Assembly: GCA_910586625.1 (NCBI GenBank)
Contig: CAJUIZ010000004.1
Coordinates: 43,529 to 107,528, forward strand
From: an uncultured Christensenellaceae bacterium
GTDB taxonomy: Bacteria; Bacillota; Clostridia; Christensenellales; CAG-314
Direction of reading: 5' to 3'
Length of the DNA: 64,000 bases
Shown one piece after another: positions 401-17,605 of the stretch. Every line of letters begins with the position of its first letter. Within the stretch, counting starts at the first letter, position 1. Made by a program: the position numbers and the translations under genes. Under the pieces are notes generated by a model, which had not been told where the DNA came from, made no database searches, and saw nothing but the letters and a program-made list of their open reading frames with translations.

Positions 401-520
401 AATATTATTCTCCCGTTTAGTTTTCGTCCGTTGCAACTAACCGCAGTTTAACACCGTTTTACGCAAAAAGCAATCAACTTGTAATTGAAATCACGCTGCT
501 CGCGAACTCAATGTCTGCTT

Positions 521-552
521 GAAAACAAAAAATCCCCTGTAAAAGGGATTTT
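521..552 (-). terminator. Rho-independent terminator downstream of the DUF1624-like gene
   Basis: Hairpin AAATCCC/GGGATTT (530-536 / 545-551) followed on the minus strand by a T-run (A-run 523-530 on plus). Confidence 0.55.
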
Positions 553-588
553 GCGTCATATAAAATGCGGAAAGCGCGAACGCCGTTA

Positions 589-1548
589 TTACAATAAATG
601 CAGTACTTCGGAAAAGAGATAAATGACCCCGAACATAAATATCTGACTGCCGAAATACACCCAAATAGAATGTCTTCCGCAAAAAGTCACCGGACTTACG
701 TACTTTGGATTGACGGTTGGGAATACGCTCTTGCGCTCCTTATAGATAATTCTGCCCAAGAAAGCACCTATCAAAAACCAACCGAAATCGGGCAAGAAGG
801 GCAGGTAGTCTCCGCCGCAGAACTTTGCGTAATCCGCGCCCTTGTGCTCCGCCAAGAAAAACCACATAGGATTGGTATTCGTCCACGGACTGTGCTTGGC
901 GCAAGCACCTACGACAAGCGCGGTTAACGTAACGGCGAGCATTACGCTACCGAAGATATTCTTTTGCCAATTTTGCTTGCACTTACCCCAACACCATTCT
1001 ATAACCGCCCACAACAGCACGGATAAAGCGATTACGTGTATTACGTTGAAATTGATTGTTAAATTTATACCGATAATCGCGGATATTGCCGCTGTCACCG
1101 CCGTAAACAGACAAGCAAACGCAATCATCTTGATTGCTCTACGCCCGTTACTTCGGGAAAAACTGCACGACATTCCCGAAGTAAATACGAACAACGTTAC
1201 GAACACGTCGTGAGTAACGTTGCGCAAAACTCCGCCGTAGTAGTTTTCGGACAACCCATACAGCCATTGGAACAGGGATGTTTTGTAATCGCCGATTCCA
1301 ATCGAGTTGACGTCCCACATAAAGTGATCCCACACGACAAACAGAATCATCAGTCCGCGCACAAAGTCCACTTCCCAAACGCGCTGTTTTTTTACAGGCG
1401 GAAGTTTAGCGAATTCATCCAATTGAACGGAGACTTCGTCCGATTCGTTTTCCGGCGTTAACGACTCTGCGACGGATGAAACGGATTCCGTTTTTTCAAC
1501 GGTAGAATCCGACTTATTATTACGTTTTGAAGCAAATTTTCCTTTCAT
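589..1548 (-). CDS. Multi-pass membrane acyltransferase-like protein (DUF1624 / heparan-alpha-glucosaminide N-acetyltransferase-like)
   Basis: ORF 589-1584. The motif [20 protein letters not shown] and many hydrophobic helices support the call. Preferred start is MKGKF at 1548, which forms an ATGA overlap with the mnmA stop (1545-1547). Confidence 0.6.
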
Positions 1549-2615
1549 TTGTACACTTCGTCTATTACTCCGCCGCCCAAACACCTGTCGCCGTCGTAAA
1601 ACACGACGAACTGCCCCGGAGTTACGGCGCGCTGCTTTTCGCGGAACGTCACTTCTACCCGTGCGTCGCTTAAAACGTTTACGGACACGTCCTGCTCGTT
1701 CTGACGATAACGGAATTTAGCCTTGCAGTCGAATCGGCGCGCGGGGCAAGACGGTATCCAGTTGATTCCGCTTGCGACAAGCGAACGAGATAGCAAAACG
1801 CTTTCGTCGCCGTGAGACACTATTAAACGGTTATTTGCCAAATCCTTGTCCACGACAAACCATCTGCCTTGACTCTCCGTCGTGCCGCCCAGTCCAAGCC
1901 CCCTGCGCTGTCCCAGCGTGTAGTACATAAGACCGATGTGTTCGCCGACTTCGTTACCGTGAACGTCCACAATTTGTCCGCATTGATTCGGTAAATAATT
2001 TTGCAAAAATTTACGAAAATTGCGTTCGCCTATAAAACAAATACCTGTGCTGTCCTTCTTCTTGGCGTTGACAAGCCCCAGTTCGTCCGCAATACGCCTT
2101 ACTTCCGACTTTTCTACGTCGGCAAGCGGAAAAAGCACGTCGGACAGCTGCGCCTGCGACAACTGATTCAAAAAATATGTCTGGTCCTTGTCGGAGTCCT
2201 TGGCTTTAAGTAAATAATGCGTTTCGTTGTCGTGTAAAATTCCGCAATAATGTCCCGTAGCTATATAGTCCGCGCCCAAAGCCTTGGCATACTGCAAAAA
2301 CGGTCCGAACTTGATTTCGCGGTTGCACAGAACGTCGGGATTAGGAGTACGTCCGCGTTTGTACTCGTCCAAAAAATACGAAAAGACGCGCTCGCGGTAT
2401 TCCTTGGCAAAATTAACCGAATAATACGGAATAGACAGCTTGTCGGACACACGCTTGACGTCTTCGTAATCCTGCGCCGCGGTACAGCAACCGTCGTCCG
2501 TTTCTTCCCAATTGTGCATAAACAACGCCACTACGTTGTATCCTTGTTTTTTGAGTAACCAAGCGGACACTGCGCTGTCAACGCCGCCGCTCATACCCAA
2601 TACTACCGTTTTCAT
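1545..2615 (-). CDS. mnmA: tRNA 2-thiouridine(34) synthase MnmA
   Basis: 356 aa. N-terminal PP-loop [26 protein letters not shown] and full-length family-typical sequence. Confidence 0.95.
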
Positions 2616-2621
2616 TGCGTA

Positions 2622-4043
2622 TTAAAGCTTTTTCATCGCCCTGCGCGCTTCCGCCGAACGGACAAGGCGTTTGAGCGTATCGATGGTTTCGTCGTTGTTG
2701 TCGGTAGTCATAACCACTTCCAACAGCTCTTCCGTAGCTTGAACAGCGTCTTCGCGGGACAGAATGCGCCGAACAAGGTACATTCCTTCCATTTGACTTT
2801 GGTTAAGCAACAGGTCTTCCCTGCGCGTTCCGCTGCGATTAAGATCGACGGCAGGGAAAATACGCTTTTCGCTCATACGGCGATCCAACTGAATTTCCAT
2901 ATTGCCGGTACCTTTGAATTCTTCGTAGATAATATCGTCCATCTTGCTGCCAGTGTCGATTAGAGCCGTCGCAAGAATCGTAAGACTTCCGCCGCCCCTT
3001 ACGTTGCGTCCGCTGCCGAACATTTTCTTGGGTTCCTGCAAAGCGGAAATATCCAAGCCGCCCGTAAGCGTTCTGCCCGTCTGCTCCGCCGTTTGGTTGT
3101 ACGCTCGCCCAAGGCGCGTTATGCTGTCCATAAGTATCATTACGTCCTGTCCCTGTTCTACGCGGCGGCGGGCGTTGGCAAATACCAATTCCGCAATGCG
3201 GCAGTGATTGTAGGGCTGTTGGTCGAAGGTAGAATAAACCACTTCGCAATCGACGCTTTCCTTGAAATCCGTAACTTCTTCGGGACGTTCGTCTATAAGC
3301 AGAACAGTCAAGTGGATTTCCGGATGATTCTTCTTGACAGCCATGGCAATCTTTTTGAGAAGTATGGTTTTTCCGGTCTTGGGGGGCGCGACTATAAGAC
3401 CGCGCTGTCCCTTGCCTATCGGAGCAACCAAGTCCAAAACGCGCAGCGAGTAGTCCGTTCTGTCCGTCTGCATATTTATCCGCTCGTTAGGAAAACAGGC
3501 TTCGAGACTGTCGAAAGGAGTACGGCGTATGGTATTGCAGACTTGATCGTTTATTTCCTTTACGTATATCGCCGTGGGCGCTTGACCTTCGGAATACTGA
3601 CGAAGCACCACTTTGAGCTTATCGCCCGATTTAAGCCCCATACGCATTATCATATTTGCCGACACGTGATAGTCGCGCATGGGCGTGTTGGAATAGTTAT
3701 GCGTACGCACAAAGCCGTAGCCGTCCTTGACGATTTCCAAAATGCCTTCGCGCGGCAAAGACGGATCGACGTTATCTTCTATTGCTTCGCAATTCAAGTC
3801 GTAAACTACCTTGGGTGCTTCCTGCTCCAAACGAACGCTTACCTTGGGGGGACGACCCGACTTCTTGGGAACTTCCGGTTCGGCATCGCCGTTGTACATA
3901 GCCAATATGGCGTCGATTAAATCGCCGCGTTTGCGATTACGCGGCACTACGCCGAAATCGCGCGCTATCGCACGAATATCGGCGATATTCATATTGTTTA
4001 GAGCAAAATTAAGTTCGTCTACCGTTTTGTACTTGGTTGGCAT
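2622..4043 (-). CDS. rho: Transcription termination factor Rho
   Basis: 473 aa. Rho N-terminal domain, RNA-binding OB region, Walker A APPKTGKT and a C-terminal RecA-like ATPase sequence. Confidence 0.95.
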   Translation of the reverse strand: MPTKYKTVDELNFALNNMNIADIRAIARDFGVVPRNRKRGDLIDAILAMYNGDAEPEVPKKSGRPPKVSVRLEQEAPKVVYDLNCEAIEDNVDPSLPREGILEIVKDGYGFVRTHNYSNTPMRDYHVSANMIMRMGLKSGDKLKVVLRQYSEGQAPTAIYVKEINDQVCNTIRRTPFDSLEACFPNERINMQTDRTDYSLRVLDLVAPIGKGQRGLIVAPPKTGKTILLKKIAMAVKKNHPEIHLTVLLIDERPEEVTDFKESVDCEVVYSTFDQQPYNHCRIAELVFANARRRVEQGQDVMILMDSITRLGRAYNQTAEQTGRTLTGGLDISALQEPKKMFGSGRNVRGGGSLTILATALIDTGSKMDDIIYEEFKGTGNMEIQLDRRMSEKRIFPAVDLNRSGTRREDLLLNQSQMEGMYLVRRILSREDAVQATEELLEVVMTTDNNDETIDTLKRLVRSAEARRAMKKL

Positions 4044-4420
4044 AAATCCTCCTAAAATTATGGACAGATTGGATTACAAAATTGAAATGTGAAATGTCGA
4101 TATTGAAATACTAATCCGACGGCGCATAAAATCAAGTTCCGCCTACGGCGGCGCTGTTATTCCGTGTAAAAACTACGCAAAAAATAAAAGTCACCTTTAC
4201 TATGCCGACTGCTCGGACATTTAAGGACGACAACAAAAATCGCGCCAAATAATCTTGTAAACAGTTTATTATATTTTATCGCGTTTGTCAACAAATAAGT
4301 CGAGCTATCGCGTGCAAAAATGGATATAATAAGACGATATTTGTCGTATACTGCTGCTACGACGAATAAAACGTAAAAATAAGTCAGCCGTACAACACGC
4401 AGGCATACAGTGTGGAAGCC

Positions 4421-4460
4421 CTGATATAATTAACCGACGCGGAGTACACCGCGTCGGTTA
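4421..4460 (-). terminator. Terminator hairpin downstream of glpK
   Basis: Perfect 12-bp stem TAACCGACGCGG/CCGCGTCGGTTA (4431-4442 / 4449-4460), immediately 3' of the glpK stop on the minus strand, followed by an A/T-rich tract. Confidence 0.5.
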
Positions 4461-4479
4461 ACCGTAATTGCATATATAC

Positions 4480-5964
4480 CTATCTGGCACGCGTTTGACG
4501 AACGGCTTTCGCCCAGCCTTCCAACAATTCTTGACGATGGACATCGTCCATATTCGGCTTAAATTCGCGCTCGGTCTTGATATTTGCGCGAATATCGTCT
4601 ATGTCTTTCCAGTAACCTGCTTCCAAGCCAGCAAGATAACACGCTCCGAGAGCCGTCGTTTCCGTCACCTTGGGACGAATTACCGTAGCGTTAAGAATAT
4701 CGGCTTGGAACTGCATAAGGAAATTATTCATACTCGCTCCGCCGTCTACGTTAAGACTCCTAATCTTGACGTTGGCGTCGCGCTGCATACTCGATACAAG
4801 GTCGTACACTTGATAATCGATTGCTTCGAGAGCCGCGCGTATAAAGTGTTCCTTCTTGGTGCCGCGGGTAATTCCCGTAATCGTTCCGCGAACTTCCGCG
4901 TCCCAATAGGGCGCACCCAAACCCGTAAAGGAAGGTACTATGTACACTCCGTTGGTATCGGAAACCTTTACGGCGTAATTTTCCGTTTCCGCGGCGGATT
5001 TTATCATACGCATCTCGTCGCGCAGCCATTGATTGATTGCTCCGCCGATAAACACGCTGCCTTCCAATACGTAGGGCGGTTTAACGTTGTTTCCGCATGC
5101 TCCGAGAGTAGTTACAAGGCCGTTTGTAGACTTAACCGCCTTGTTTCCTGTGTTCATAAGCAGGAAACAGCCCGTGCCGTAGGTGTTCTTTACGTCCCCT
5201 TCGTTTACGCACAAATGTCCGAACAAAGCCGCTTGCTGGTCTCCCACCACGCTGCAAATCGGTATCTCGCGTCCAATAAAGGTTTCGTCCGTAATGCCGT
5301 AATTGTAACCGGACGCGTGAACTTCGGGCAGCATACATTCGGGAATACCGAACAGCTCGAGCAAATCCCCGTCCCATTCGAGAGTATGAATGTTAAACAG
5401 CATAGTACGGCTGGCGTTAGTGTAGTCTGTTGCAAATATTTTGCCGCGGGACAGCTGCCACATAAGATATGTATCCACCGTGCCGAACAGCAATTCGCCC
5501 TTTTCGGCGCGTTCGCGCGCGCCGTCGACGTTATCCAATATCCATTTGATTTTTGTTGCGGAAAAATACGCGTCGAGCACCAAGCCCGTCTTGTCGTAAA
5601 TCTTTTCGGACAAGCCCTGCGCCTTTAACTGTTCGCAGTATTCCGCCGTTCTGCGACATTGCCAAACTATTGCATTATACACGGGCTTACCGGTATTCTT
5701 ATCCCATACGAAGGTCGTTTCGCGCTGATTGGTTATGCCGATAGCGGCAATATCCGCCGCGGAAACGTTGGCTCTTATCAACGCTTCCACTATTACGCCC
5801 ACTTGACTGCCGTAAATATCGTGGGGGTCGTGCTCCACCCAACCGGGATGCGGATAAATCTGCGGAAATTCCTGCTGAGCTTTGCCGAGAATTTTTCCCT
5901 GTTTGTCGAATACTATCGCGCGGGACGAAGTTGTGCCTTGATCCAACGACAAAATGTATTTCAT
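4480..5964 (-). CDS. glpK: Glycerol kinase
   Basis: 494 aa. [20 protein letters not shown]... and full FGGY-family glycerol kinase sequence. Confidence 0.95.
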
Positions 5965-6013
5965 ATTTACTCTCCTGTTTTTATTGAGATTTTATGAAGG
6001 CGCAATAATAGAC

Positions 6014-6376
6014 TTATACGCGAGAGACATTCTTGGTTACGATAAAATCCACTCCGCAGCCGCATATGTCCGCCGCTGCCACGTCGCCAATATGCACGGG
6101 AGCGGTAAGCGTTACGTTCTTCAACAGTTCCAAGCTCTTAAAAATCAATTCCTTGGGGATAGCTTCGCGCGTTTTGACTGATACCATAGGTATATTTCCG
6201 CCCTGCACCTTAACCGAACCTGTTACCATACGTTTGGGAGCGGTAACTTCGTTTACCGCGTAGGTTACTCCGCGCGGACATGTGTTGCCCGTAACGGTAA
6301 TATTTGCCTTGTCTGCGTCGTCCACCGTAAGCCTGCAACCCATAGGACAATTGATACAAATCATTTCTCTGCTCAT
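6014..6376 (-). CDS. DUF1667 domain protein (third component of the clostridial glycerol-3-phosphate oxidoreductase cluster)
   Basis: 120 aa. Cys motif CINCPMGC...C, immediately downstream of two FAD oxidoreductase genes and upstream of glpK. Confidence 0.75.
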   Translation of the reverse strand: MSREMICINCPMGCRLTVDDADKANITVTGNTCPRGVTYAVNEVTAPKRMVTGSVKVQGGNIPMVSVKTREAIPKELIFKSLELLKNVTLTAPVHIGDVAAADICGCGVDFIVTKNVSRV

Positions 6377-6378
6377 AG

Positions 6379-7641
6379 CTATTCTCCTTTGATAAGGGTA
6401 ATTTCTACCGATTTGGCTTGCTTTAACGTTTTCATTTGCTCTGCCGTCAAGTTTATATTTTCCATTTCGCCGGGGGCAACTACGGGACGTTTACGTCCGT
6501 ACACCTTTACTCCGTCGGCAAACACGGCAAGCTCGACCTTCTTGAAAACGTTGGCCACGCGCATCTTGAAGGACTGCGGCGCGTATACTTCGTCGCGGTT
6601 TAACACGGTGGGTACGCAGTAGCGCACGCCGTTGGTGCATGAAATTACCGTCTTGTCACGGCAGGGCGTTGCTCCGTTTATGTAGTCCGCCGCGCGTACG
6701 CCTGCGTTTTCGCTTTCCGCCGAAACAAAGTCCACAAGGTCGTGAACGTGCAGAACGTTTCCGCACTCGAATACGCCTTCGACGTTGGTCATAAGATTCT
6801 CGTCTACAACCGCGCCGCCCGTTGTGGGGGACAACTGAACTTCGGCGTTCTTGGCAAGCTCGTTTTCGGGGAGTAAACCTACGGACAGAAGCAACGTGTC
6901 GCAGGGGATAAACCGCTCCGTTTCCTTAATCGGCTGCAATTTGTCGTCTACCTGAGCGATTACCACGCCTTCGACGCGTTCCTTACCCTTGATATTGACG
7001 ACGGTATGCGAAAAGTACAGCGGAATATCGAAGTCGTTGAGACACTGCACTATGTTTCTGTTCAGTCCCGACGAAAAGGGCATAAGCTCCACTACCGCCT
7101 GAACGTGAGCGCCTTCGAATGTCATACGGCGCGCCATAATAAGTCCTATGTCGCCGCTTCCGAGTATTACGACTTCCTTACCCGGCAAATAACCGTCGAT
7201 ATTGACGAGCTTCTGCGCCGTGCCTGCGGAAAAAACTCCCGCGCCGCGCATACCCGCTATGTTTATTGCTCCGCGCGGACGCTCGCGGCAGCCGCAGGCG
7301 AGTATTACAGCCTTGGCTTGCACCTGTACGAGACCGTCTTGAGCGGAAACGTAAGTAACCGTCTTGTCGTTGGAAACGTCAATTACGGTAGCATTGAGTT
7401 TATAGGTTATGCCGCGCTTTATAACTTCGTCTATATAGCGCGACGCGTATTCCGGACCGGTCAGCTCTTCCTTAAAGGTGTGCAGACCGAATCCGTTGTG
7501 AATGCATTGGTTAAGTATGCCGCCCAGCTCTGCTTCGCGTTCCAGTATCAATATATCGCGTTCGCCCGCGTCGTACGCGGACTTGGCTGCGGCAAGTCCC
7601 GCGGGACCGCCGCCGACAATAACAAGATTTACTTTTATCAT
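6379..7641 (-). CDS. NAD(P)/FAD-dependent pyridine nucleotide-disulfide oxidoreductase
   Basis: 420 aa. N-terminal VIVGGGPAGLAAA dinucleotide fold and a second GSGDIG Rossmann motif. The start at 7641 abuts the upstream gene. Confidence 0.8.
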   Translation of the reverse strand: MIKVNLVIVGGGPAGLAAAKSAYDAGERDILILEREAELGGILNQCIHNGFGLHTFKEELTGPEYASRYIDEVIKRGITYKLNATVIDVSNDKTVTYVSAQDGLVQVQAKAVILACGCRERPRGAINIAGMRGAGVFSAGTAQKLVNIDGYLPGKEVVILGSGDIGLIMARRMTFEGAHVQAVVELMPFSSGLNRNIVQCLNDFDIPLYFSHTVVNIKGKERVEGVVIAQVDDKLQPIKETERFIPCDTLLLSVGLLPENELAKNAEVQLSPTTGGAVVDENLMTNVEGVFECGNVLHVHDLVDFVSAESENAGVRAADYINGATPCRDKTVISCTNGVRYCVPTVLNRDEVYAPQSFKMRVANVFKKVELAVFADGVKVYGRKRPVVAPGEMENINLTAEQMKTLKQAKSVEITLIKGE

Positions 7642-9427: not shown

Positions 9428-11935
9428 TTACGCGCCTAAAAACCAACCCACTTGCGCGCCGACAGCCAAAGACGTATTGGCGCAGGCAATGAAGGTCATA
9501 ATAACCGCGTTGATAATACCGGCAAGCCAAGCGTTGCCCGTACGAACATACGTTCTGCGCGCTATAACCGTAGCGATACCTACGCAAGGAATAATGGGTA
9601 TAGCCGCGATATAGAACAGACTTGACGTTGCGATTTGCGTACCCGTACGGATAAAGTAATCGTTGGAAGCCCACAGCAGTATCACTACGCCTATAACGTT
9701 AAATACCACGTTGATTGCTATCGTAGCCCATTCGGGAAGATCTTTTACTCTGTAATTCTGACTGAACGCCGACGTTACCATGTAGAAGATAAAGAAGAAC
9801 GGGACGTATTGCAGCATTGCGGGAACGCGTACAAGGTCGAATACTCTGAGATCGAACGTCCAGAAGCGGAAGTCAACGTTGGACATTCCCCAAACGCCGA
9901 ACATAACGCCGTAGAATACCGCAAGAACGATAGCCGCGAGCAGCGGGGTTTTGAGTACGTTTTGCCAGCTGCGAATCTTGAAGCCGTCGAACGGGCGCTC
10001 GTTGTGAAGATGTGCGTCTTCGCCGTAGACAAACGTATTGATGCAGTAGTTGATAAACCAAATAACCACCGATACGATTATTGCGAATGCTGCGCACAAA
10101 ATTCCCCAAGCGGCGAATCTGGCGACTGTGTCGTTGTAAATAAACTTTTCGTTATCGAACATTTTCAGTAACGAATTGTAAATATGCCATTTGTCGTTGC
10201 CGTACATATTTCTCAAACTGTACGCGCCGAATATTGCGGTTAATATTCCCGAAAGCCAATATGTGACGTGCTTGCGCGGGCGGGTGAGAAGAACGGGACC
10301 TTCGGCAATTTCGCCTTCGGCAGCCTTCAAGGAAGCGAACAGCTTGGTGCCGAGAAGCATATCGAGTACGGGGAAGATAAGTCCGAACAAGCCAAGGAAA
10401 CCGAGCATAGAGAAGGCTTCTTTAAGCCACCAGGTTTGATTAGTCGGTGCAATATATCTGCCTACGGGAGATACGCCGAACGCATTGTAGAAGAAATCGA
10501 CTACGTGCGCTGCGGATTGAATCGAGAAGTGATTCATCGGGTGTGTTTCGCGCGCTTCGTATATTACGCGGATAGTATTTTCCGCAGAAGCTATCGCTTC
10601 GCCCTTTCTTTGAATGGATACGAGATTGCCGCGTTTGGGAACGGTGCGCTCGATTTTGCCGCCGCTTTCGGTGTCAAGAGTGTCGTATACCTTTACTTCG
10701 GGCTGATACTGCAGCTCGCCGTTGACGTAAATGCCGCCGTTTGCAACTTTGTATGCGTCAAGCGCCGCTACTTCCGTCTTGGATTTGCCCGTGACAAACG
10801 CCATTGCATTGACCGTATTCAAATACACGTACGCGCTGCCGCTATCGGTAAGAGTGTAGTATTGCTTGGACGGACGGAACTTCTGACCTTGGTCCTGCTT
10901 GACGTAGCCGTCCTTTTCTTTTAGATAATAGCCTGTGTAATTGTCTTCGTTGACGGATGCTTTGGAAACTCTTAAATACGCTTTTTCTTTAAGCGTGCTG
11001 TTAAAGAAAAATTCGTCTGCGGAAGCCTTCAATACGCCAGCCGCAAGTACGTTGCTGCCGATAGACGCGGGAGCGCCGTAACCGAACATATTGGTGACGT
11101 CGTTGGCTTGCGTAAGACCCGCGGAAATAATACCGAGATGGTAACCCGCCTTACGCCTGTCGTTGTTAGCCGTTGCCAACGTCTTTTGAGAATCTCCGGG
11201 TTTCAAGTCCTTATTAAGTTCAGCTGTTTCCTGTTGGATTATCTGGTCGGAATAAGTCGAATCTATACCGTCCAATTGCAAAGTGTTAATTGTTGCTCCG
11301 CCGCCCATCGAGTGACCGGATACGCCGATTTTACTTTGATCCACTATCGGCAAATTGTACAAATACTTTGCCGCTTGCAAGAAAATATACGGAGTGTAGC
11401 CGTAGTTTGCCTGCATACCGCCGGCGTCTATTTGATCCTGCGAAGCGTTGTGTCCGTGTCCGCCGTAGTCGATAGCCAAAACAACGTAGCCGCGGCGCAC
11501 CATTTCTATTACGTTTTGCAGCTGCATTTCGCGGTTATTATACAAGCCGTGCGTAAATACGATTGCGGGAACCTTATTTTCCGCGCTTGCTTTCTTGGGA
11601 ATGTAAAGCAAACCTGACGAAACGTAGCCTTTTACGTCGTAAGACGTATCGACCCCCGCGTCGTTAGGACGCGTGATTTTGCCGGAGTTGCTTACGTCAC
11701 GCAGGTCTTCCACCGTTGCCGACCAACCTGCCGTTTGGACAAGCGAGCCCACAAATGTTGCAAGCAGAATCAGCACAAGGCATACAGCCAGCATAAAAAT
11801 ACTGCGCTTGTTTCTATTGCGCCAAATCTTCAAAAACCAGTTATCCTTCTTCTCCTGCGCGGGAGCAGCGGAAGGCGTAACCGTTTCATGAACTTCGGGC
11901 TGTTGAGTTTCTTGAATTTGATCGCTCATATTCAT
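9428..11935 (-). CDS. Alpha/beta-hydrolase domain fused to a large polytopic membrane domain
   Basis: 835 aa. N-terminal TM helix, then a predicted exported hydrolase domain with nucleophile elbow GVSGHSMGGG, then about 9-10 hydrophobic helices in the C-terminal about 330 aa. The second ATG at 11929 has better spacing to SD AAGGAG. Confidence 0.7.
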   Translation of the reverse strand: MNMSDQIQETQQPEVHETVTPSAAPAQEKKDNWFLKIWRNRNKRSIFMLAVCLVLILLATFVGSLVQTAGWSATVEDLRDVSNSGKITRPNDAGVDTSYDVKGYVSSGLLYIPKKASAENKVPAIVFTHGLYNNREMQLQNVIEMVRRGYVVLAIDYGGHGHNASQDQIDAGGMQANYGYTPYIFLQAAKYLYNLPIVDQSKIGVSGHSMGGGATINTLQLDGIDSTYSDQIIQQETAELNKDLKPGDSQKTLATANNDRRKAGYHLGIISAGLTQANDVTNMFGYGAPASIGSNVLAAGVLKASADEFFFNSTLKEKAYLRVSKASVNEDNYTGYYLKEKDGYVKQDQGQKFRPSKQYYTLTDSGSAYVYLNTVNAMAFVTGKSKTEVAALDAYKVANGGIYVNGELQYQPEVKVYDTLDTESGGKIERTVPKRGNLVSIQRKGEAIASAENTIRVIYEARETHPMNHFSIQSAAHVVDFFYNAFGVSPVGRYIAPTNQTWWLKEAFSMLGFLGLFGLIFPVLDMLLGTKLFASLKAAEGEIAEGPVLLTRPRKHVTYWLSGILTAIFGAYSLRNMYGNDKWHIYNSLLKMFDNEKFIYNDTVARFAAWGILCAAFAIIVSVVIWFINYCINTFVYGEDAHLHNERPFDGFKIRSWQNVLKTPLLAAIVLAVFYGVMFGVWGMSNVDFRFWTFDLRVFDLVRVPAMLQYVPFFFIFYMVTSAFSQNYRVKDLPEWATIAINVVFNVIGVVILLWASNDYFIRTGTQIATSSLFYIAAIPIIPCVGIATVIARRTYVRTGNAWLAGIINAVIMTFIACANTSLAVGAQVGWFLGA

Positions 11936-12108
11936 TTTCTCCTTAATATTTTTATATCCTATTCCTTAACTGCAAGGAACAAATACCGAAAGAAAATATG
12001 TTATTACACCGTATGCCGATTTATTGCGATTTATCGTCGAAAAATCAAAATATACTTCGCATACGAAATAATTTACCTGTATACTGCCATTTATATAGCA
12101 AAAATATA

Positions 12109-12118
12109 CCCCCCCCCC
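12109..12118. repeat. C10 homopolymer tract in a divergent intergenic region
   Basis: Ten consecutive C residues counted directly, flanked by ATATAC ... GTATAC within an otherwise very AT-rich spacer. Confidence 0.9.
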
Positions 12119-12235
12119 GTATACTAATGTCAATACCAAAATGCAATAAAAAAATTTTTATTATTATTTTCATTATACAAATGTTAACACTACCGCATTT
12201 ACGCTTGCGTGCGTACTGTTATTTTGCAAGTAAAA

Positions 12236-12264
12236 TTGACAACGCTTTTATACGATGGTATAAT
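12236..12264 (+). promoter_or_regulatory. Sigma-A type promoter with extended -10 for the 12326-17605 operon
   Basis: TTGACA (12236-12241), 17-nt spacer ending in TGG, TATAAT (12259-12264). Located about 60 nt upstream of the first ATG. Confidence 0.6.
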
Positions 12265-12325
12265 AATATTATGTCGTACGGACGGCAAAGCCGTATTAAC
12301 AAGAAAACGTAAAAGGAAGAATTAA

Positions 12326-12817
12326 ATGAAACGGATTACTTCGGAAGAAATGCGCTACAAGGTGCCGAAAGTAAAAAACCGATTTATAGCCGCGCACGCA
12401 AAATTTATTATCGCATGCGCGCTATTTGCGGTTATATCTATTATTCTGTTCGCCAGCTTTGCGTATATTGCCGAAAGCAGAAAGTTAGAGCCCAAACGCG
12501 CGTTTGTTTTTACATGCGACGTACAAGACATAGATGCCTGCAACAAAGTAGCCGATAAGTTTACGCAGACGGCAGAAATATACTTTGCAAAATACGACGA
12601 GCAATTCGCTTACAACAACGAAAAATACTCGTTCGATTTTTCCTGCGTGTGTAATACGGAATTCAAAATCGAAATCGACGAAAACACCGCGCTTGTATTA
12701 TTCAAAAACAACCGCAGTTCGTATTACGACTATACCTTCGAAAAACTGGAATTATCAAACGGCGCGCTTAGCGCCGAGCAAGTGGAACAAATAGTAAGGG
12801 AGATACTGACAAAATGA
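12326..12817 (+). CDS. Small single-pass membrane protein with a Cys-containing extracytoplasmic domain (hypothetical)
   Basis: 163 aa. SD AAGGAAG 7 nt upstream, basic N-tail, one TM helix (FIIACALFAVISIILFASFAYI) and an about 110-aa C-terminal domain. Its stop overlaps the next start (ATGA at 12814-12817). Confidence 0.7.
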   Translation: MKRITSEEMRYKVPKVKNRFIAAHAKFIIACALFAVISIILFASFAYIAESRKLEPKRAFVFTCDVQDIDACNKVADKFTQTAEIYFAKYDEQFAYNNEKYSFDFSCVCNTEFKIEIDENTALVLFKNNRSSYYDYTFEKLELSNGALSAEQVEQIVREILTK

Positions 12818-15800
12818 GTAATATATCTTTTTTTGTATCCAGCACCTTCAACGATATGCAAAGCGAACGCGATATCATACGCGACAGAATAGCTCCCGAA
12901 ATAGACGAACGTATCAAACGTTACGGACAGAACTTGGAATTTATAGATTTGCGTTGGGGAATAGACACCAAAGGAGAAAACGAGAACGACGCCAACGCAA
13001 AAATTTTACGTACCTGCTTTGACGAAATTCAAAAGACAAAGCCCTACTTCGTAGCCCTTATAGGCGAACGGTACGGTTGGATACCCGACGCCGACGACGT
13101 AACGGCGGCGTTATTAGACAACGGCGTGGAAGTTACGGACGAACTGCTGAACAAGAGCATTACCGAATTGGAAATAGAATGCGCCTTACGCAGCTATCCA
13201 TTTATGGACAGATGCGTATTCTACTTCCGCGACGAAATAGATTACGGCAGCGACGAACAGGCCAAAAAGAATTTCGTATCGCACGGAAAAGACAAAGAAA
13301 AAGTAGCTCTGCTCAAAAAGAAGCTGACGGAATTGTATCCGAAACAAATTCGTACTTATTCGGCGAAATGGAACAAAGAGCTTCAAAGAATCGAAGGATT
13401 GGAAGAATTCGGCAAATCGCTGTTCAACGATGTAATTACTACGCTCGAAACTGACCTTGAAAAAACAGCGGCGCCGCAGAATCCTATAGAAGAAAGCCTG
13501 AACGTACAAAAAGGACTTATAGACAGGTTGTCGGCAACGTTTTCCGGAAGAAGCCCCGAGCTTCGACTTATAGACGAATTTTCACGCTCGGACAAATGCG
13601 TAATGCTGCTTACGGGGCAATCGGGCAGCGGAAAAAGCTCGCTGCTGGCAAAAGCCGTAACCCTGTTAAGCGATAACGCCTGCGTATTGCCTTTCTTCGT
13701 TGGCGCAGACGAAAATGCGTGTTCGGTAGAAAATATGCTAAAATCAATCGTATTCGTACTGTCTGAAAAGCTGAACGCGCCGCTATGCTTTCAGCCGAAC
13801 GAACGCGAATGCGACTACGGCGCGATATTAAAACAATTTTACTCTCTTATAAATACGGCGGCGTTGGATCGCGACGTTTATTTGGTTATAGACGCGATAA
13901 ACCAATTTGCGCGCACGCCCTACGAAGCGGATATGAAGTGGCTTAATCTGCATTCGTTAAACCCCAATGTCAAGCTGATTATTTCGTCTACACCCGATTA
14001 CTACCAACTTAGATTTATCGAAGCGTTGCGCCCAATGTCGGTTAATCTGGATTATTTTACGTTAGACGACGTAGAGTCCGTTGCGCGGAGATACTTCAAA
14101 ATAAACCACAAAGAGATAAACGATGCCGTATTGAAAGAGATAACGCTTAAAGGCGGCGATAAATACAATCCCTGCAGAGAGCCTATATATCTGCTGTCCC
14201 TGTTGCAGGAGCTGACCAATATCGGCAAGGAAGACTTCCGAGAAATAAAACGGCGCGAAGCCGCGCTGGGCGAAAACGCCGGAGACGCAATAATAAACTA
14301 CTTGGCGGATATCGCGCGAAACGCTCCGAACAAGCTGAATTTGCAATTGGAAACGCTATACGGCAAGATATGCTCGCTAATCGGCGAACGCGAAACGGCG
14401 TTATACGTTTGCTCTATTGCCGTAAGCCGTCAAGGAATGGATGAAAAATTTATAGAAAAAATTTCCGAAAAAATCGGCGTTCCTTTCCACTCCGCTACTT
14501 TTTCCTACTTTCGTAAACTGTTAAAAAACGACTTGTACCAACGGGAAAACGGCAAGTGGGAGTTTTCGCACGCATTGGTCAAAAACTACTACCGTTCGCG
14601 ATTCGACAGGCAATATGTCGACAGCATACTGTCCGCAGTTATAGACCGTCTCGACGAAACAGACGACGACAATTCTTTCAAAAAGACGGAATACGCTTAT
14701 TATCTGACGATGGCGAACAAGCCCGAACTGTTTACCGCGTACTATTGCAGAATGAAAAACGACGACCAAGTACGCAATTCGCTTGTTAACGAATTACAAC
14801 AGTTGGACGCGCGGTCGGACGTGCCGTCAAGACTGCTTGCACCAAACGGAACGCCGTGCAAAGAAATGTGGACGTTCTTCTACGAAACGATAGAAAACGG
14901 TTTGTACGCGCCCCAAAACTCCGAAGCGTACGCTTGCGCCGCACTGAACTCGATATACCTGACGGAATATGCAAACGACGAACAGGCGTTGTACGCGATA
15001 TTCCGCGTCTACTACGCGTTGGGACAAGTGGCAGTTCGCTCGGGATATTACAATGCTGCCAAAGACTATCTTCATATGGCGTTGTCTATCGTTTCACAGC
15101 GTACCGAATCGTACAAAGTAAGACTATACGCTTTACTTGCCGACTGTTACTACAACACGGGCGACAGTCTATCCGAGCGCAAATACGACAACCTGCGCGA
15201 AAAAGAATTGCTTGCAAGCGAACCGAGCGCAAAACAAACGCAAGAGCTATTGCACTACCTGTACGAAGACAGCTTGCAAAAGGTTCAAGGCATATTGCCT
15301 TGGCGCAAAACCGTTACAGCCCACTTGAATAAAATGCAATCGCTGTTACAGCTGAATTTACTTGACGAACAGGAAACCTGCCTGTGGATTGCAAAAATAC
15401 TGCGGATAGTATCTCGGTTTGCAATGCCGAAAGGGCAGTACGACGACGAAACGGCGCGCGCAATAAAATTTGCCGACGAAGCGCCGTCCTTGCTCGGGGC
15501 GGAATGTCTGTACGCCGCGGCGCTGTATACAGCTAATTCGGACACTACCAAGGCATATGAGCTTGCGCAAAAATCTCACGCTAAAATAACGGAAGCGTTA
15601 AAAACGGATAACGGCGCGGAAACGCTCGCACTGTCTAACGAAATACTCAATCTGCTGATATACTTTGCCGATGTTTTCAAAGATAACGACACCGAGTTAA
15701 TTAAACAACGCGCGGAAACGCTTGCGCGGCTAAACCTTTTGGCTCCGACATACGAGACGGTATGCGAAGAAATACGGTTGCTCAAAAAGGAAGATAACGG

Positions 15801-16638
15801 CGAAATCAAAACAAAAAAACTGAAAACAAGTAAAAAATTACGCAGAGAATCATCACGCGAACAGGTTACGGCAGAACAAAAAGCCGTAAACAAAATACTG
15901 CTGCTGATAGTTGCGGGCGTTTTGGCAGTGTTCGCCGTAGGTATGCCGATATTCTTTTCGCTTATGCGTTCATCGATACATACGGTTTTCGGTTACGGCA
16001 GTACGCCCTACTATTTATTTATAAATTTCTTTGTGGAAGCACTATTCGAAACGTTTTTCAATATGTTTTTCTGCTTCGGCGCGTACGGCTTACTGCAAAT
16101 ACTCTACCCCGCTTCCGACTACAAAAAGCGCAAGATATGGATAAAGCGTTCGGCAGTATTTTTTGCGCTGGCGGCGATTGTAACGATTGTATACGCTCTT
16201 GTATGGAATCATAACTACGAAACGAATATTATAACTTCGGGAAATTTCGAAAACTACGAAATATACGTTATGTCGTTACTTGTAACCGAAATGATGCTTG
16301 TAATGATGACGTTAAACGAAGCTATGTCTTTTGCTACGTACGAACGACCGTTGACATCACAAGCGGATAACCGCGAACGGTTTGTAAACAATTTGAGAGC
16401 GAACCTGCTTAACGCGCTTATTAAGCTGCTTATGCTGGGCGTTTGCGTAACGGTATATCGGCTTGCGTACGCCTACCTAAACGCGAATTACACTCAACGA
16501 CTTGCCGATTCGTTACTGATATTTTCCAACGCGCTGTATTACTCCTTTGCGGGAGCGATTGCGTTTGTAATAATAGCAAAAGCCGTATACTTTATATTGG
16601 AATATTCAAGGAGAAAATATGGGAAAGCTCCGCGTTAA
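12814..16638 (+). CDS. DUF4062-like / STAND (NACHT-like) P-loop NTPase / TPR-like repeats / C-terminal about 6-TM domain protein
   Basis: 1274 aa with SD AAGGGAGA upstream. N-terminus FFVSSTFNDMQSERD...FIDLRWGI...SITELEIECAL (DUF4062-type signature as in NWD1/NPHP3-type proteins). Walker A GQSGSGKS (13615-13638). Walker B-like VYLVIDAINQ (Asp at 13891-13893). TPR-like helices (e.g. YYALGQVAVRSGYYNAAKDYLHMAL). K/R-rich linker, then about 6 hydrophobic helices (about 15890-16600). Confidence 0.8.
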   Translation: MSNISFFVSSTFNDMQSERDIIRDRIAPEIDERIKRYGQNLEFIDLRWGIDTKGENENDANAKILRTCFDEIQKTKPYFVALIGERYGWIPDADDVTAALLDNGVEVTDELLNKSITELEIECALRSYPFMDRCVFYFRDEIDYGSDEQAKKNFVSHGKDKEKVALLKKKLTELYPKQIRTYSAKWNKELQRIEGLEEFGKSLFNDVITTLETDLEKTAAPQNPIEESLNVQKGLIDRLSATFSGRSPELRLIDEFSRSDKCVMLLTGQSGSGKSSLLAKAVTLLSDNACVLPFFVGADENACSVENMLKSIVFVLSEKLNAPLCFQPNERECDYGAILKQFYSLINTAALDRDVYLVIDAINQFARTPYEADMKWLNLHSLNPNVKLIISSTPDYYQLRFIEALRPMSVNLDYFTLDDVESVARRYFKINHKEINDAVLKEITLKGGDKYNPCREPIYLLSLLQELTNIGKEDFREIKRREAALGENAGDAIINYLADIARNAPNKLNLQLETLYGKICSLIGERETALYVCSIAVSRQGMDEKFIEKISEKIGVPFHSATFSYFRKLLKNDLYQRENGKWEFSHALVKNYYRSRFDRQYVDSILSAVIDRLDETDDDNSFKKTEYAYYLTMANKPELFTAYYCRMKNDDQVRNSLVNELQQLDARSDVPSRLLAPNGTPCKEMWTFFYETIENGLYAPQNSEAYACAALNSIYLTEYANDEQALYAIFRVYYALGQVAVRSGYYNAAKDYLHMALSIVSQRTESYKVRLYALLADCYYNTGDSLSERKYDNLREKELLASEPSAKQTQELLHYLYEDSLQKVQGILPWRKTVTAHLNKMQSLLQLNLLDEQETCLWIAKILRIVSRFAMPKGQYDDETARAIKFADEAPSLLGAECLYAAALYTANSDTTKAYELAQKSHAKITEALKTDNGAETLALSNEILNLLIYFADVFKDNDTELIKQRAETLARLNLLAPTYETVCEEIRLLKKEDNGEIKTKKLKTSKKLRRESSREQVTAEQKAVNKILLLIVAGVLAVFAVGMPIFFSLMRSSIHTVFGYGSTPYYLFINFFVEALFETFFNMFFCFGAYGLLQILYPASDYKKRKIWIKRSAVFFALAAIVTIVYALVWNHNYETNIITSGNFENYEIYVMSLLVTEMMLVMMTLNEAMSFATYERPLTSQADNRERFVNNLRANLLNALIKLLMLGVCVTVYRLAYAYLNANYTQRLADSLLIFSNALYYSFAGAIAFVIIAKAVYFILEYSRRKYGKAPR

Positions 16639-17605
16639 ATATCTTGTAATAGCGTTAGTATTTGCTCTGCTCGCCGTATTGGGCGGAATAACCGCGTATT
16701 TGAATAAAGACTCCGTTGTGTTCGCCGCCTTTCGGCACGGGGCGGGAACGGAAGAAGATCCCTACCGCATTTACAACGATAATCAACTGTACAACTTACA
16801 GGAAATTTCGTCCAGCTCCGTAGCAAGAGAACGCACAAAAGGCAAGTATTTCAAGCTGATGAATAATCTGAAAGGAACGTACCGTACGCAGCAAAACTCC
16901 TACGGATTTTACGGGGTTTTGGACGGAAACGGATGTACCGTTACGCTTAGTAAATATTCCTTGTTCTACATTTTGAAAGAAGCTTCGACGGTAAAAAATT
17001 TAACCGTCGTAAAGAACGACAATATATATGTCGCAGGAGATGTTTATGCGTTGGCTATGTACATAAACAACGGCGCGACAGTGGACAACTGCACATTCAA
17101 CTGCAACGCCACAATATATATTCCGTCTAAAATGACGCCTGCGCCCATTACGTACACCGCTTGCTGCAAATTTAACAACGGCATTATAAAAAACTGCGAA
17201 TTTAATACCGACATATCTATGCTATACGCAGACGACGAAAATCACGGAAAGTTCGGTTATATTTATATTGCCGCCGTCGCTTACGGCGGAGTGGGCGAAG
17301 GTACAATCGACAACTGCGTAGTAAACGGGAATTTTTCTCTTATTACCGCAGGCATTGCGACTTTTCAGACAGCGGGCATCGCCATTGATAAAAACAACGT
17401 CAGTAACTGCACGTTTAACGGAGATATTAGGGTCAAATACCGTTCCGGCAAAATATATCCGTTCGTTTACGGGCTTACAATAAATAAGGTAACGAACTGC
17501 GTGTTTAACGGCAACGTTTACGCCGATTTTACACCGTACAAATACGGCATAGCAGGGAAAGACAGCACCGTTACTCATAACGGAGAAATAATCATCACGC
17601 CTTAA
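16619..17605 (+). CDS. Signal-anchored parallel beta-helix / GLUG-like repeat surface protein
   Basis: 328 aa. SD AAGGAG 6 nt upstream and a start 20 nt inside the upstream gene. N-terminal hydrophobic anchor YLVIALVFALLAVLGGITAYL. GTEEDPYRIYNDNQLYNL entry motif. Five periodic x-N-C-x-F/V-N rungs (AACTGC at 17087, 17192, 17312, 17405, 17495). Confidence 0.7.
   Translation: MGKLRVKYLVIALVFALLAVLGGITAYLNKDSVVFAAFRHGAGTEEDPYRIYNDNQLYNLQEISSSSVARERTKGKYFKLMNNLKGTYRTQQNSYGFYGVLDGNGCTVTLSKYSLFYILKEASTVKNLTVVKNDNIYVAGDVYALAMYINNGATVDNCTFNCNATIYIPSKMTPAPITYTACCKFNNGIIKNCEFNTDISMLYADDENHGKFGYIYIAAVAYGGVGEGTIDNCVVNGNFSLITAGIATFQTAGIAIDKNNVSNCTFNGDIRVKYRSGKIYPFVYGLTINKVTNCVFNGNVYADFTPYKYGIAGKDSTVTHNGEIIITP

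Follow-up and report, generated by a model that had tools for sequence, protein, structure and literature searches.

DUF4062, since renamed NIR, is described in preprints of 2026 as a TIR-like NAD+ hydrolase that yields ADP-ribose and nicotinamide, and in PsAvs2, Vulcan, Vesta and Swarozyc it has been shown by experiment to deplete NAD+ and to mediate abortive infection. Closest to the locus described here is PsAvs2, a STAND protein with DUF4062 as its N-terminal effector, which together with other NIR-STAND-repeat proteins combines an N-terminal NIR NADase containing a catalytic glutamate with a central STAND module and C-terminal helical repeats (Le Mouellic et al., bioRxiv 10.64898/2026.09.04.749371). 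Here, we describe a gene with these same parts, referred to as gene B, which lies within a 64,000-nucleotide stretch of DNA (the window) of contig CAJUIZ010000004.1 from an uncultured Christensenellaceae bacterium. PsAvs2 is encoded by a single gene, and the available text of the paper hints at no membrane part; gene B, in contrast, ends in a block of six transmembrane (TM) helices and is flanked by two membrane-protein genes, here referred to as genes A and C. NIR-STAND-repeat proteins are an already known kind of protein, and what is new is the membrane-bound form with exported partners. From the likeness to PsAvs2, NAD+ depletion and abortive infection would be expected. We propose that the A-B-C operon encodes an NLR-like system of abortive infection that is integrated in the membrane, depletes NAD+ and is possibly triggered at the envelope, a proposal for which we consider the chances to be about evenly balanced.

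Four further systems, Swarozyc, Evangelion, Vulcan and Vesta, pair DUF4062 with an auxiliary domain or partner. They share with gene B the effector domain and the logic by which a sensor releases a TIR-like NADase but, unlike gene B, have neither a STAND NTPase nor a membrane part. Their sensors are cytoplasmic and respond to the portal protein, to replication proteins, to lambdap79, or to genome-degradation products. A single catalytic glutamate is needed in each of Swarozyc, Vulcan, Vesta and the Avs2 STAND protein, and NAD+ drops upon infection; the residue is E1008 in TEP1, E108 in PsAvs2 and E97 in KpSwz. For Eva01 of Evangelion, the abstract proposes NAD+ depletion, and E87 is given as the putative catalytic glutamate in the portion of the text available. 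The metazoan proteins NWD1, NWD2, NPHP3 and TEP1 have the same adjacent pair of DUF4062 and a NACHT-type P-loop as gene B; human TEP1 is an active NADase in vitro, whereas full-length NWD1, NWD2 and NPHP3 are inactive in vitro. These proteins are soluble, with WD40 or TPR ends and without a polytopic membrane domain, while gene B is membrane bound. The accessible parts of the 2026 preprints on DUF4062 discuss no membrane-bound form, with "membrane" and "transmembrane" appearing only in a generic remark on effector targets. Likewise, the available portion of a 2026 survey of bacterial STAND receptors describes no membrane-bound NIR-STAND protein and no partner genes for outward-facing domains, and it names TM segments only as a type of effector. 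Gene B represents the first membrane-bound architecture for the NIR/DUF4062 NADase family.

The product of gene B is made up of four parts, namely DUF4062, a NACHT-like STAND NTPase, an alpha-solenoid of about 570 residues and six C-terminal TM helices. This order (DUF4062, NACHT-like P-loop, helical repeats, six TM helices) had been read from the letters of the DNA in an earlier note and is correct, and the motifs on which that reading drew are present in the translation: FFVSSTFNDMQSERD, SSTFNDMQSERD and DLRWGI within residues 5 to 50, SITELEIECAL at residues 115 to 125 (nucleotides 13156-13188), the Walker A motif GQSGSGKS at residues 268 to 275 (nucleotides 13615-13638), the Walker B motif VYLVID at residues 355 to 360 (nucleotides 13876-13893) and a Lys/Arg-rich linker ahead of the first hydrophobic helix. 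The features of gene B are as follows.

12814..16638, + strand: gene B, 1274 residues, NIR(DUF4062)-STAND NTPase-alpha-solenoid-six TM helices (intact open reading frame)
12820..13452, + strand: NIR/DUF4062 TIR-like NADase domain, residues 3-213 (Pfam PF13271 and TEP1 homology)
13171..13173, + strand: codon of E120, the predicted catalytic glutamate, SITELE120 (alignment to TEP1)
13534..14103, + strand: STAND NTPase core, NACHT-like and of the NPHP3_N type, residues 241-430 (Pfam, invariant Walker residues, fold)
14104..15813, + strand: winged-helix/helical arm and alpha-solenoid, partly TPR-like, residues 431-1000, predicted to be cytoplasmic (all-alpha in the AlphaFold2 model)
15814..15891, + strand: Lys/Arg-rich juxtamembrane linker, residues 1001-1026 (translation)
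15892..16599, + strand: six-helix TM block, residues 1027-1262, N-in/C-in, followed by a basic cytoplasmic tail (hydropathy, loop charges, AlphaFold2)

Conservation was assessed in a family of 33 full-length members, which are 27-76% identical over their full length, and in a wider set of the 71 next-best NIR-STAND relatives; an alignment of 87 sequences was made in two parts, with P0063 and P0106-P0120 left out. The AlphaFold2 model of gene B covers residues 240 to 1274 and was run with the family alignment.

The NADase domain is the most conserved region of the family, with a mean pairwise identity of 0.54. Pfam PF13271 (DUF4062) matches residues 7 to 120 of gene B with 39.4 bits against a cut-off of 24.7. 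As a single sequence, residues 3 to 209 align over about 205 residues with the TIR-like domain of human TEP1 (PDB 11gz_A) at an E value of 4.4e-19, and the family profile reaches an E value of 2.8e-31 against the same structure. The catalytic residue E1008 of TEP1 falls on E120 of gene B, the second glutamate of the SITELE motif; the offset in TEP1 numbering was checked and reproduces the published residues R908, R954 and R976. All 33 family members and all 71 wider relatives carry E120; in the wider relatives, E118, the first glutamate of the motif, is frequently an alanine. R86, which corresponds to TEP1 R976, is likewise invariant. Because E120 and R86 are invariant and E120 aligns with E1008 of TEP1, the effector domain of gene B looks intact at the sequence level. 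The view of the earlier note that DUF4062 has no defined role has been overtaken by the 2026 preprints, which present it as a TIR-like enzyme that hydrolyzes NAD+ and acts as an effector against phages, also within Avs/NLR-like proteins. The N-terminal module of gene B is therefore predicted to be the effector and not a mystery domain, and gene B carries a probable NAD+-destroying domain.

The P-loop domain that follows belongs to the STAND class. The Pfam model NPHP3_N, a NACHT-type P-loop, matches residues 258 to 392 with 45 bits against a cut-off of 24.8; NACHT itself falls narrowly below its cut-off (25.8 versus 26.7), and the matches to AAA_16 and nSTAND1 are sub-threshold. Residues G268, S270, G271, G273 and K274 of Walker A and D360 of Walker B are invariant in the 33 members, and the NTPase together with the helical arm has a mean pairwise identity of 0.42-0.44. 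The top Foldseek matches of the model are NLRP3, NLRP9, NLRP14, EfAvs5 (9jap, a SIR2-STAND protein) and Avs4 (8dgf), with E values of about 1e-5. The global template modeling scores (TM-scores) of these matches are low, the chains being long and multidomain, and the result is dominated by the NTPase and says nothing on the fold of the TM bundle. An assignment to an unrelated ATPase family, which the earlier note had considered, was checked by profile search, and DUF4062 and NPHP3_N/NACHT were returned instead. Taken together, the NTPase of gene B is a STAND of the NWD1/NPHP3 type and not a generic AAA+ or ABC ATPase. PADLOC gave no Avs or other system-level match for gene B (STAND_TPR, 22.3 bits, E value of 8.5e-6, with no stretch passing alone; mad3, 20 bits), and gene B is therefore treated here as working like an Avs protein without being assigned to any named Avs family.

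Residues 431 to 1000 are all-alpha in the AlphaFold2 model, which bears out the helical part of the earlier description as TPR-like repeats. The TPR label itself fares less well: no Pfam TPR model scores above its cut-off, the best being TPR_8 with 19.2 bits against 25.7 at residues ~731 to 753, and the family profile matches one solved TPR protein, FLU, at an E value of 7e-5. The Foldseek matches include the TPR scaffolds TTC7B, Ski3 and Ctr9. H586, which is invariant and lies in a WxFxH motif, resembles the winged-helix histidine of NLRs. The part from residue 641 to residue 1000 is fast evolving, with a mean identity of 0.26.

Hydrophobic segments are found at approximately residues 1027-1050, 1067-1097, 1110-1133, 1149-1170, 1196-1219 and 1238-1262, with hydropathy peaks of 1.5-2.8 in a 19-residue window. 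The first 1000 residues of gene B contain no TM-like segment except for a marginal window over the P-loop strand. All 33 family members have four to six C-terminal segments at the threshold used, mostly six, and their first 1000 residues are nearly free of such segments. The positive-inside rule is obeyed, with a mean number of Lys and Arg residues of 3.0, 3.2, 4.9 and 4.5 in the predicted cytoplasmic loops versus 1.4, 1.1 and 1.0 outside, and AlphaFold2 predicts six helices of 30-43 residues with a mean pLDDT (predicted local distance difference test score) of 85. On the basis of hydropathy, loop charges and the model, the six segments behave as genuine TM helices, with both ends predicted to lie in the cytoplasm. 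The alternative noted earlier, that they are amphipathic helices of a soluble protein, does not agree with this behavior as judged from the sequences. The TM block is among the least conserved regions, with a mean identity of 0.27. Within it, however, conserved polar residues stand out: E1079, N1083, C1087, Y1091 and G1092 in TM2, with E1169 in TM4 joining E1079 and N1083 as conserved acidic or polar residues within the helices. D1102, Y1103 and R1112 are conserved in the cytoplasmic loop after TM2, where W1109 is invariant, and K1023 and K1027, at the linker, are almost invariant in the family. The TM block is rare and specific to the gene B family. A Pfam search at an E value of 10 returned noise alone (DUF6904, EssA, RIFIN and TMD0_ABC, all below 14 bits), and NCBIfam, PADLOC and PHROGs gave no match. 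An exhaustive phmmer search of residues 1000 to 1274 against 1.84 billion cluster representatives yielded 12 proteins, 10 with the same architecture of ~1240-1280 residues and 2 short fragments, and no stand-alone or otherwise-fused copy of the block was found in it.

Gene B does not stand alone. It is the middle gene of an operon, the other features of which are as follows.

12326..12817, + strand: gene A, 163-residue bitopic membrane protein, stop codon overlapping the start of gene B in ATGA (open reading frame, homologues upstream of gene B)
16619..17605, + strand: gene C, 328 residues, N-terminal anchor (residues ~8-28) and a GLUG-type right-handed beta-helix predicted to face outward (AlphaFold2, homologues)
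12236..12264, + strand: candidate promoter-like site, TTGACA-17 nt-TATAAT with extended TG, ~60 nucleotides upstream of gene A (12/12 consensus matches)

The start of gene C overlaps the end of gene B by 20 nucleotides, and all three genes have Shine-Dalgarno sites (GGAAG before gene A, AAGGAG before gene C). In each family locus examined, a gene A homologue lies directly upstream and a gene C homologue directly downstream of gene B; the A-B-C order with its overlaps is kept in all 12 distinct loci, each of which has different flanking genes. The three genes make up a single operon. The link is also selective: among 80 NIR-STAND loci from species genomes, A and C homologues adjoin all seven TM-bearing genes of this family and no soluble one, and a single additional C-like match adjoins P0039, which itself has a TM block. 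The suggestion in the earlier note that the polytopic domain anchors gene B beside partner proteins fits the presence of two conserved, overlapping genes for membrane proteins with outward-facing domains. Its other suggestion, that the domain senses the state of the membrane, is at present a hypothesis.

The gene A product consists of a basic N-terminal tail, one TM helix (residues ~28 to 49) and a variable C-terminal domain of ~110 residues that is predicted to face outward. Its 27-residue cytoplasmic tail, EEMRYKVPxVxNRF, is the best-conserved part, with a mean pairwise identity of 0.47; the TM helix reaches 0.25 and the outer domain 0.24. The beta-helix of gene C is similarly fast evolving (mean identity of 0.26). 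The AlphaFold2 model of gene C has a pLDDT of 89.6, and among solved structures the closest to it is 3n6z, a putative IgA1 protease from Bacteroides ovatus (E value of 1.4e-4, TM-score of 0.51); beta-helix domains of Gram-positive IgA1 proteases also match it, with a TM-score of ~0.5. Two homologues of gene C, P0125 and P0127, score 40 and 37 bits with Pfam Glug (PF07581), for which the cut-off is 20.5, while the window copy has no Pfam match even at an E value of 10. Apart from Glug in these homologues, searches of Pfam, NCBIfam, PADLOC, PHROGs and PDB sequences gave no informative match for gene A or gene C, and for gene A the first four gave no match at all. A word-indexed homologue search found nine relatives of gene C and three of gene A. 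In one locus (L003, positions 9750-11612), the gene C protein is 620 residues long and matches the window protein twice (residues ~4-280 and ~322-554), its beta-helix being duplicated in tandem. The possibility that gene C mimics a phage receptor-binding protein was also considered and dropped, as comparison with viral structures gave generic beta-helices alone and no evidence for it.

Full-length relatives of gene B were found in 7 of 185,579 species genomes, all of them metagenome-assembled genomes (MAGs) of uncultured Christensenella-like bacteria or Clostridia, several of which are named for mouse (MGBC) or rabbit (Lapin) samples. In the remaining 73 of the 80 loci returned, the match is limited to the NIR-STAND half. 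As the earlier note had pointed out, it is unusual for a polytopic block to follow the repeats: one is carried by only 3 of the 71 next-best, soluble-type relatives, P0034, P0038 and P0039. Their TM blocks are analogous to that of gene B in position and topology; we do not claim that they are homologous, since comparison of the family TM profile with them by hhalign and hmmsearch gave a probability below 7%. One of the three, P0038 (L089, positions 765-7109), has 2114 residues, in which the NIR, STAND and helical parts are followed by seven predicted TM helices and then by a large BspA-type leucine-rich repeat (LRR) domain (Pfam LRR_5, E value of 2.7e-105). The seven helices share the same inside/outside charge pattern, and the LRR domain probably faces outward, as judged from this sequence. 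The locus keeps an upstream bitopic gene and has no separate gene C downstream, and P0038 can be read as a B-like protein to which a C-like anchored ectodomain has been fused. Downstream of it lies a gene for an AAA protein with weak similarity to DolB. On either side of P0039 are a bitopic gene and a gene for a GLUG-like protein that has a lipoprotein signal. In this C-like protein (L091, positions 4102-5484), the signal (...FVTAC) replaces the TM anchor, which implies that such partners are exported. Two genes beyond (positions 6199-7410), a Fic protein is encoded that matches SoFic of PADLOC at an E value of 4.5e-33.

In light of these findings, we infer an immune role and envisage the following course of events. 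The gene B product would be anchored in the membrane by its six C-terminal helices, with the N-terminal part of about 1000 residues in the cytoplasm, and the products of genes A and C would be single-anchor membrane proteins with their variable domains directed outward; the three may form a complex. At rest, the gene B product would be held off, as are other STAND proteins. Upon a trigger, the STAND module would bind ATP and oligomerize, the clustered NIR domains would deplete NAD+ and the infected cell, starved of NAD+, would no longer allow the invader to replicate. It is less certain that the trigger is read at the envelope. In that case, the outer domains of A, of C or of both would detect phage attachment, tail penetration or wall damage, and the signal might reach gene B through contacts within the membrane and through the cytoplasmic tail of gene A, which may dock on the gene B solenoid. 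Envelope sensing is favored because of the exclusive linkage to exported, fast-evolving domains and because of the LRR fusion. In addition, the effector and the switch are conserved, whereas rapid change is seen in the solenoid, in the TM block and in the outer domains of both A and C, as it is in the parts of receptors. More tentatively, and with considerable doubt, the family and its LRR-fused relative could be the first bacterial NLR-like receptors to read extracytoplasmic signals, with the exported beta-helix or LRR detecting phage or envelope damage and the signal crossing the polytopic block to fire a STAND-controlled TIR-like NADase.

Several points weigh against the proposed abortive-infection system and its outward sensing. 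The window cassette lies amid housekeeping genes and not in a defense island, and genes A and C match no defense or phage family in PADLOC or PHROGs. An intact glutamate does not ensure NADase activity. The outside loops of gene B are short (14-17 residues), so that little of it is exposed, and the outward orientation of the P0038 LRR domain depends on a single marginal TM helix, for which a hydropathy of about 1.5 was computed by hand. The family is known from sequences alone, all of them from uncultured gut Clostridia. Finally, sensing could in fact be the task of the long cytoplasmic solenoid, as it is in Avs proteins, in which case no detection from the outside would be needed.

This last point leads to an explanation that we consider unlikely, although it is far from negligible, namely that the solenoid of an Avs-like gene B protein recognizes a phage protein in the cytoplasm, that the TM helices merely hold it at the membrane, for instance near the site of DNA injection, and that A and C are accessory, serving localization, stability or restraint. 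In the available text on characterized STAND defense proteins, the C-terminal repeats bind phage proteins directly (10.64898/2026.09.04.749371), and membrane-located defenses that act at the injection site are known (PMC13190303). An Avs4-portal structure is among the fold matches of the gene B model, the solenoid is both long and fast evolving, and the shortness of the outside loops is as expected for an anchor. What such an anchor leaves unexplained is why two overlapping genes for outward-facing domains accompany every TM-bearing member and no soluble one, why an LRR ectodomain is fused to the TM block of P0038 and why polar residues are conserved within TM2. If this explanation holds, the addition to what is known would be modest, an Avs-like NADase positioned at the membrane. 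The TM block might instead be a second effector that damages the membrane, with STAND oligomerization assembling the six-helix bundles into a pore or leak that kills together with, or in place of, NAD+ depletion. TM modules are known as effectors in STAND and other defense proteins, according to the accessible part of one source (PMC13581612), effectors aimed at the cell membrane are listed in the DUF4062/STAND literature, and the conserved residues E1079, N1083 and E1169 would suit such a function. However, an intact effector is already present in gene B where it is usually found, at the N-terminus, the TM block sits at the sensor end and is far less conserved than the effector (0.27 versus 0.54), and the link to exported partners and an LRR ectodomain speaks for a part in reception and not in killing; we regard pore formation as very unlikely.

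We hold an equally low opinion of the idea that the operon serves signaling other than immunity, in which a surface cue such as a glycan or immunoglobulin bound by the GLUG beta-helix would tune NAD+/ADP-ribose, dormancy or envelope physiology. GLUG beta-helices do occur in host-interacting surface proteins such as IgA1 proteases, all family members come from gut metagenomes, the window contains no defense neighbors and some STAND proteins, such as MalT and AfsR, are regulators and not immune sensors. Nevertheless, every bacterial DUF4062 protein tested so far acts in phage defense, Pfam identifies no DNA-binding or other regulatory output domain in gene B, and the patchy distribution, the differing flanks and the defense neighbors at some loci fit an accessory immune islet. 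Both the pore-forming and the nonimmune role are less likely than a membrane-integrated abortive-infection system that depletes NAD+.

To our knowledge, all characterized bacterial STAND or NLR-type immune sensors read proteins inside the cell, and animal and plant receptors with outer LRRs are placed in a class of their own. If signals are indeed read at the surface, a membrane-built STAND-NADase genetically locked to exported binding domains would couple surface events to an NLR-type switch, and one system would join the logic of surface pattern receptors, such as Toll-like receptors, with that of intracellular NLRs. In Toll-like receptors, an outer LRR is followed by one TM helix and a cytoplasmic TIR domain, and P0038 likewise places LRR and TIR-like domains on opposite sides of the membrane. 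P0038 differs, however, in having STAND and solenoid parts between the TIR-like domain and the membrane, seven helices instead of one and the reverse chain order; its TIR-like domain is an enzyme, whereas that of Toll-like receptors is an adaptor scaffold. The window system differs further in that its ectodomains are on separate chains. The KAP family of P-loop NTPases, which Aravind and colleagues are said to have described in 2004, is reportedly related to STAND and predicted to be membrane embedded, with TM helices inserted inside the P-loop domain. In contrast, the P-loop domain of gene B is uninterrupted and its TM block is a separate C-terminal domain; some relatives of gene B do give weak Pfam matches to KAP_NTPase. 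Among bacterial defenses, membrane-embedded parts of Kiwa (KwaA/KwaB) and Zorya sense phage-induced changes of the envelope and signal to a cytoplasmic effector (PMC11785009, PMC13434031). The likeness is one of logic only, as their proteins are unrelated to those of A-B-C and include no STAND switch, NADase, beta-helix or LRR ectodomain.

The genes around the window cassette encode a glycerol-3-phosphate oxidase, a hydrolase, glycerol kinase, Rho, MnmA, RqcH, an RluD-like protein, LspA, holA and ComEC, and no known defense gene adjoins the cassette within the window. At three other loci, defense genes or candidates do adjoin the cassette or its analogues (PDC-S01, E value of 5e-147; SoFic, E value of 4.5e-33; and a kinase resembling mad6/PD-T4-6). 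The first of these is a PDC-S01-type ATPase (AAA_14/DUF4143, PADLOC) which, with a 750-residue RyR-domain protein, is encoded directly upstream of the cassette (L006, positions 936-4404). The kinase, a Ser/Thr kinase, is encoded upstream of another cassette (L005, positions 509-4256) together with a Flg_new-type protein and a TerD-domain protein. In a Christensenella-like MAG (L001, positions 3677-5085), a DUF2726 protein of 191 residues and an overlapping 278-residue protein are encoded immediately upstream of gene A; neither has a PADLOC match, and the 278-residue protein has no family match.

Divergent from the operon in the window is a gene on the minus strand (9428-11935) for an 835-residue protein with an N-terminal alpha/beta-hydrolase domain (matches of the AXE1, PETase and DLH types) and a long C-terminal region with many hydrophobic segments. 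Neither this protein nor RqcH is conserved beside other cassettes, and both were discarded as parts of the system. An open reading frame of 104 codons on the plus strand (11998-12312) is probably spurious, being a low-complexity sequence in an AT-rich spacer with no family match. The candidate promoter sits in this intergenic region of 31% G+C content and is only a candidate, as the region as a whole has no more promoter-like sites than expected by chance. A search for signs of recent transfer revealed neither a tRNA nor a repeat boundary near the cassette; its G+C content, 0.448, is slightly below the 0.47-0.49 of the flanks. In the scan of species genomes, no locus was more than 43% identical to the gene B cluster of P0001. 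Proteins A and B recur in identical or nearly identical form on hundreds of contigs from metagenomes, one variant of A on as many as 279, and the host is therefore common in the sampled communities.

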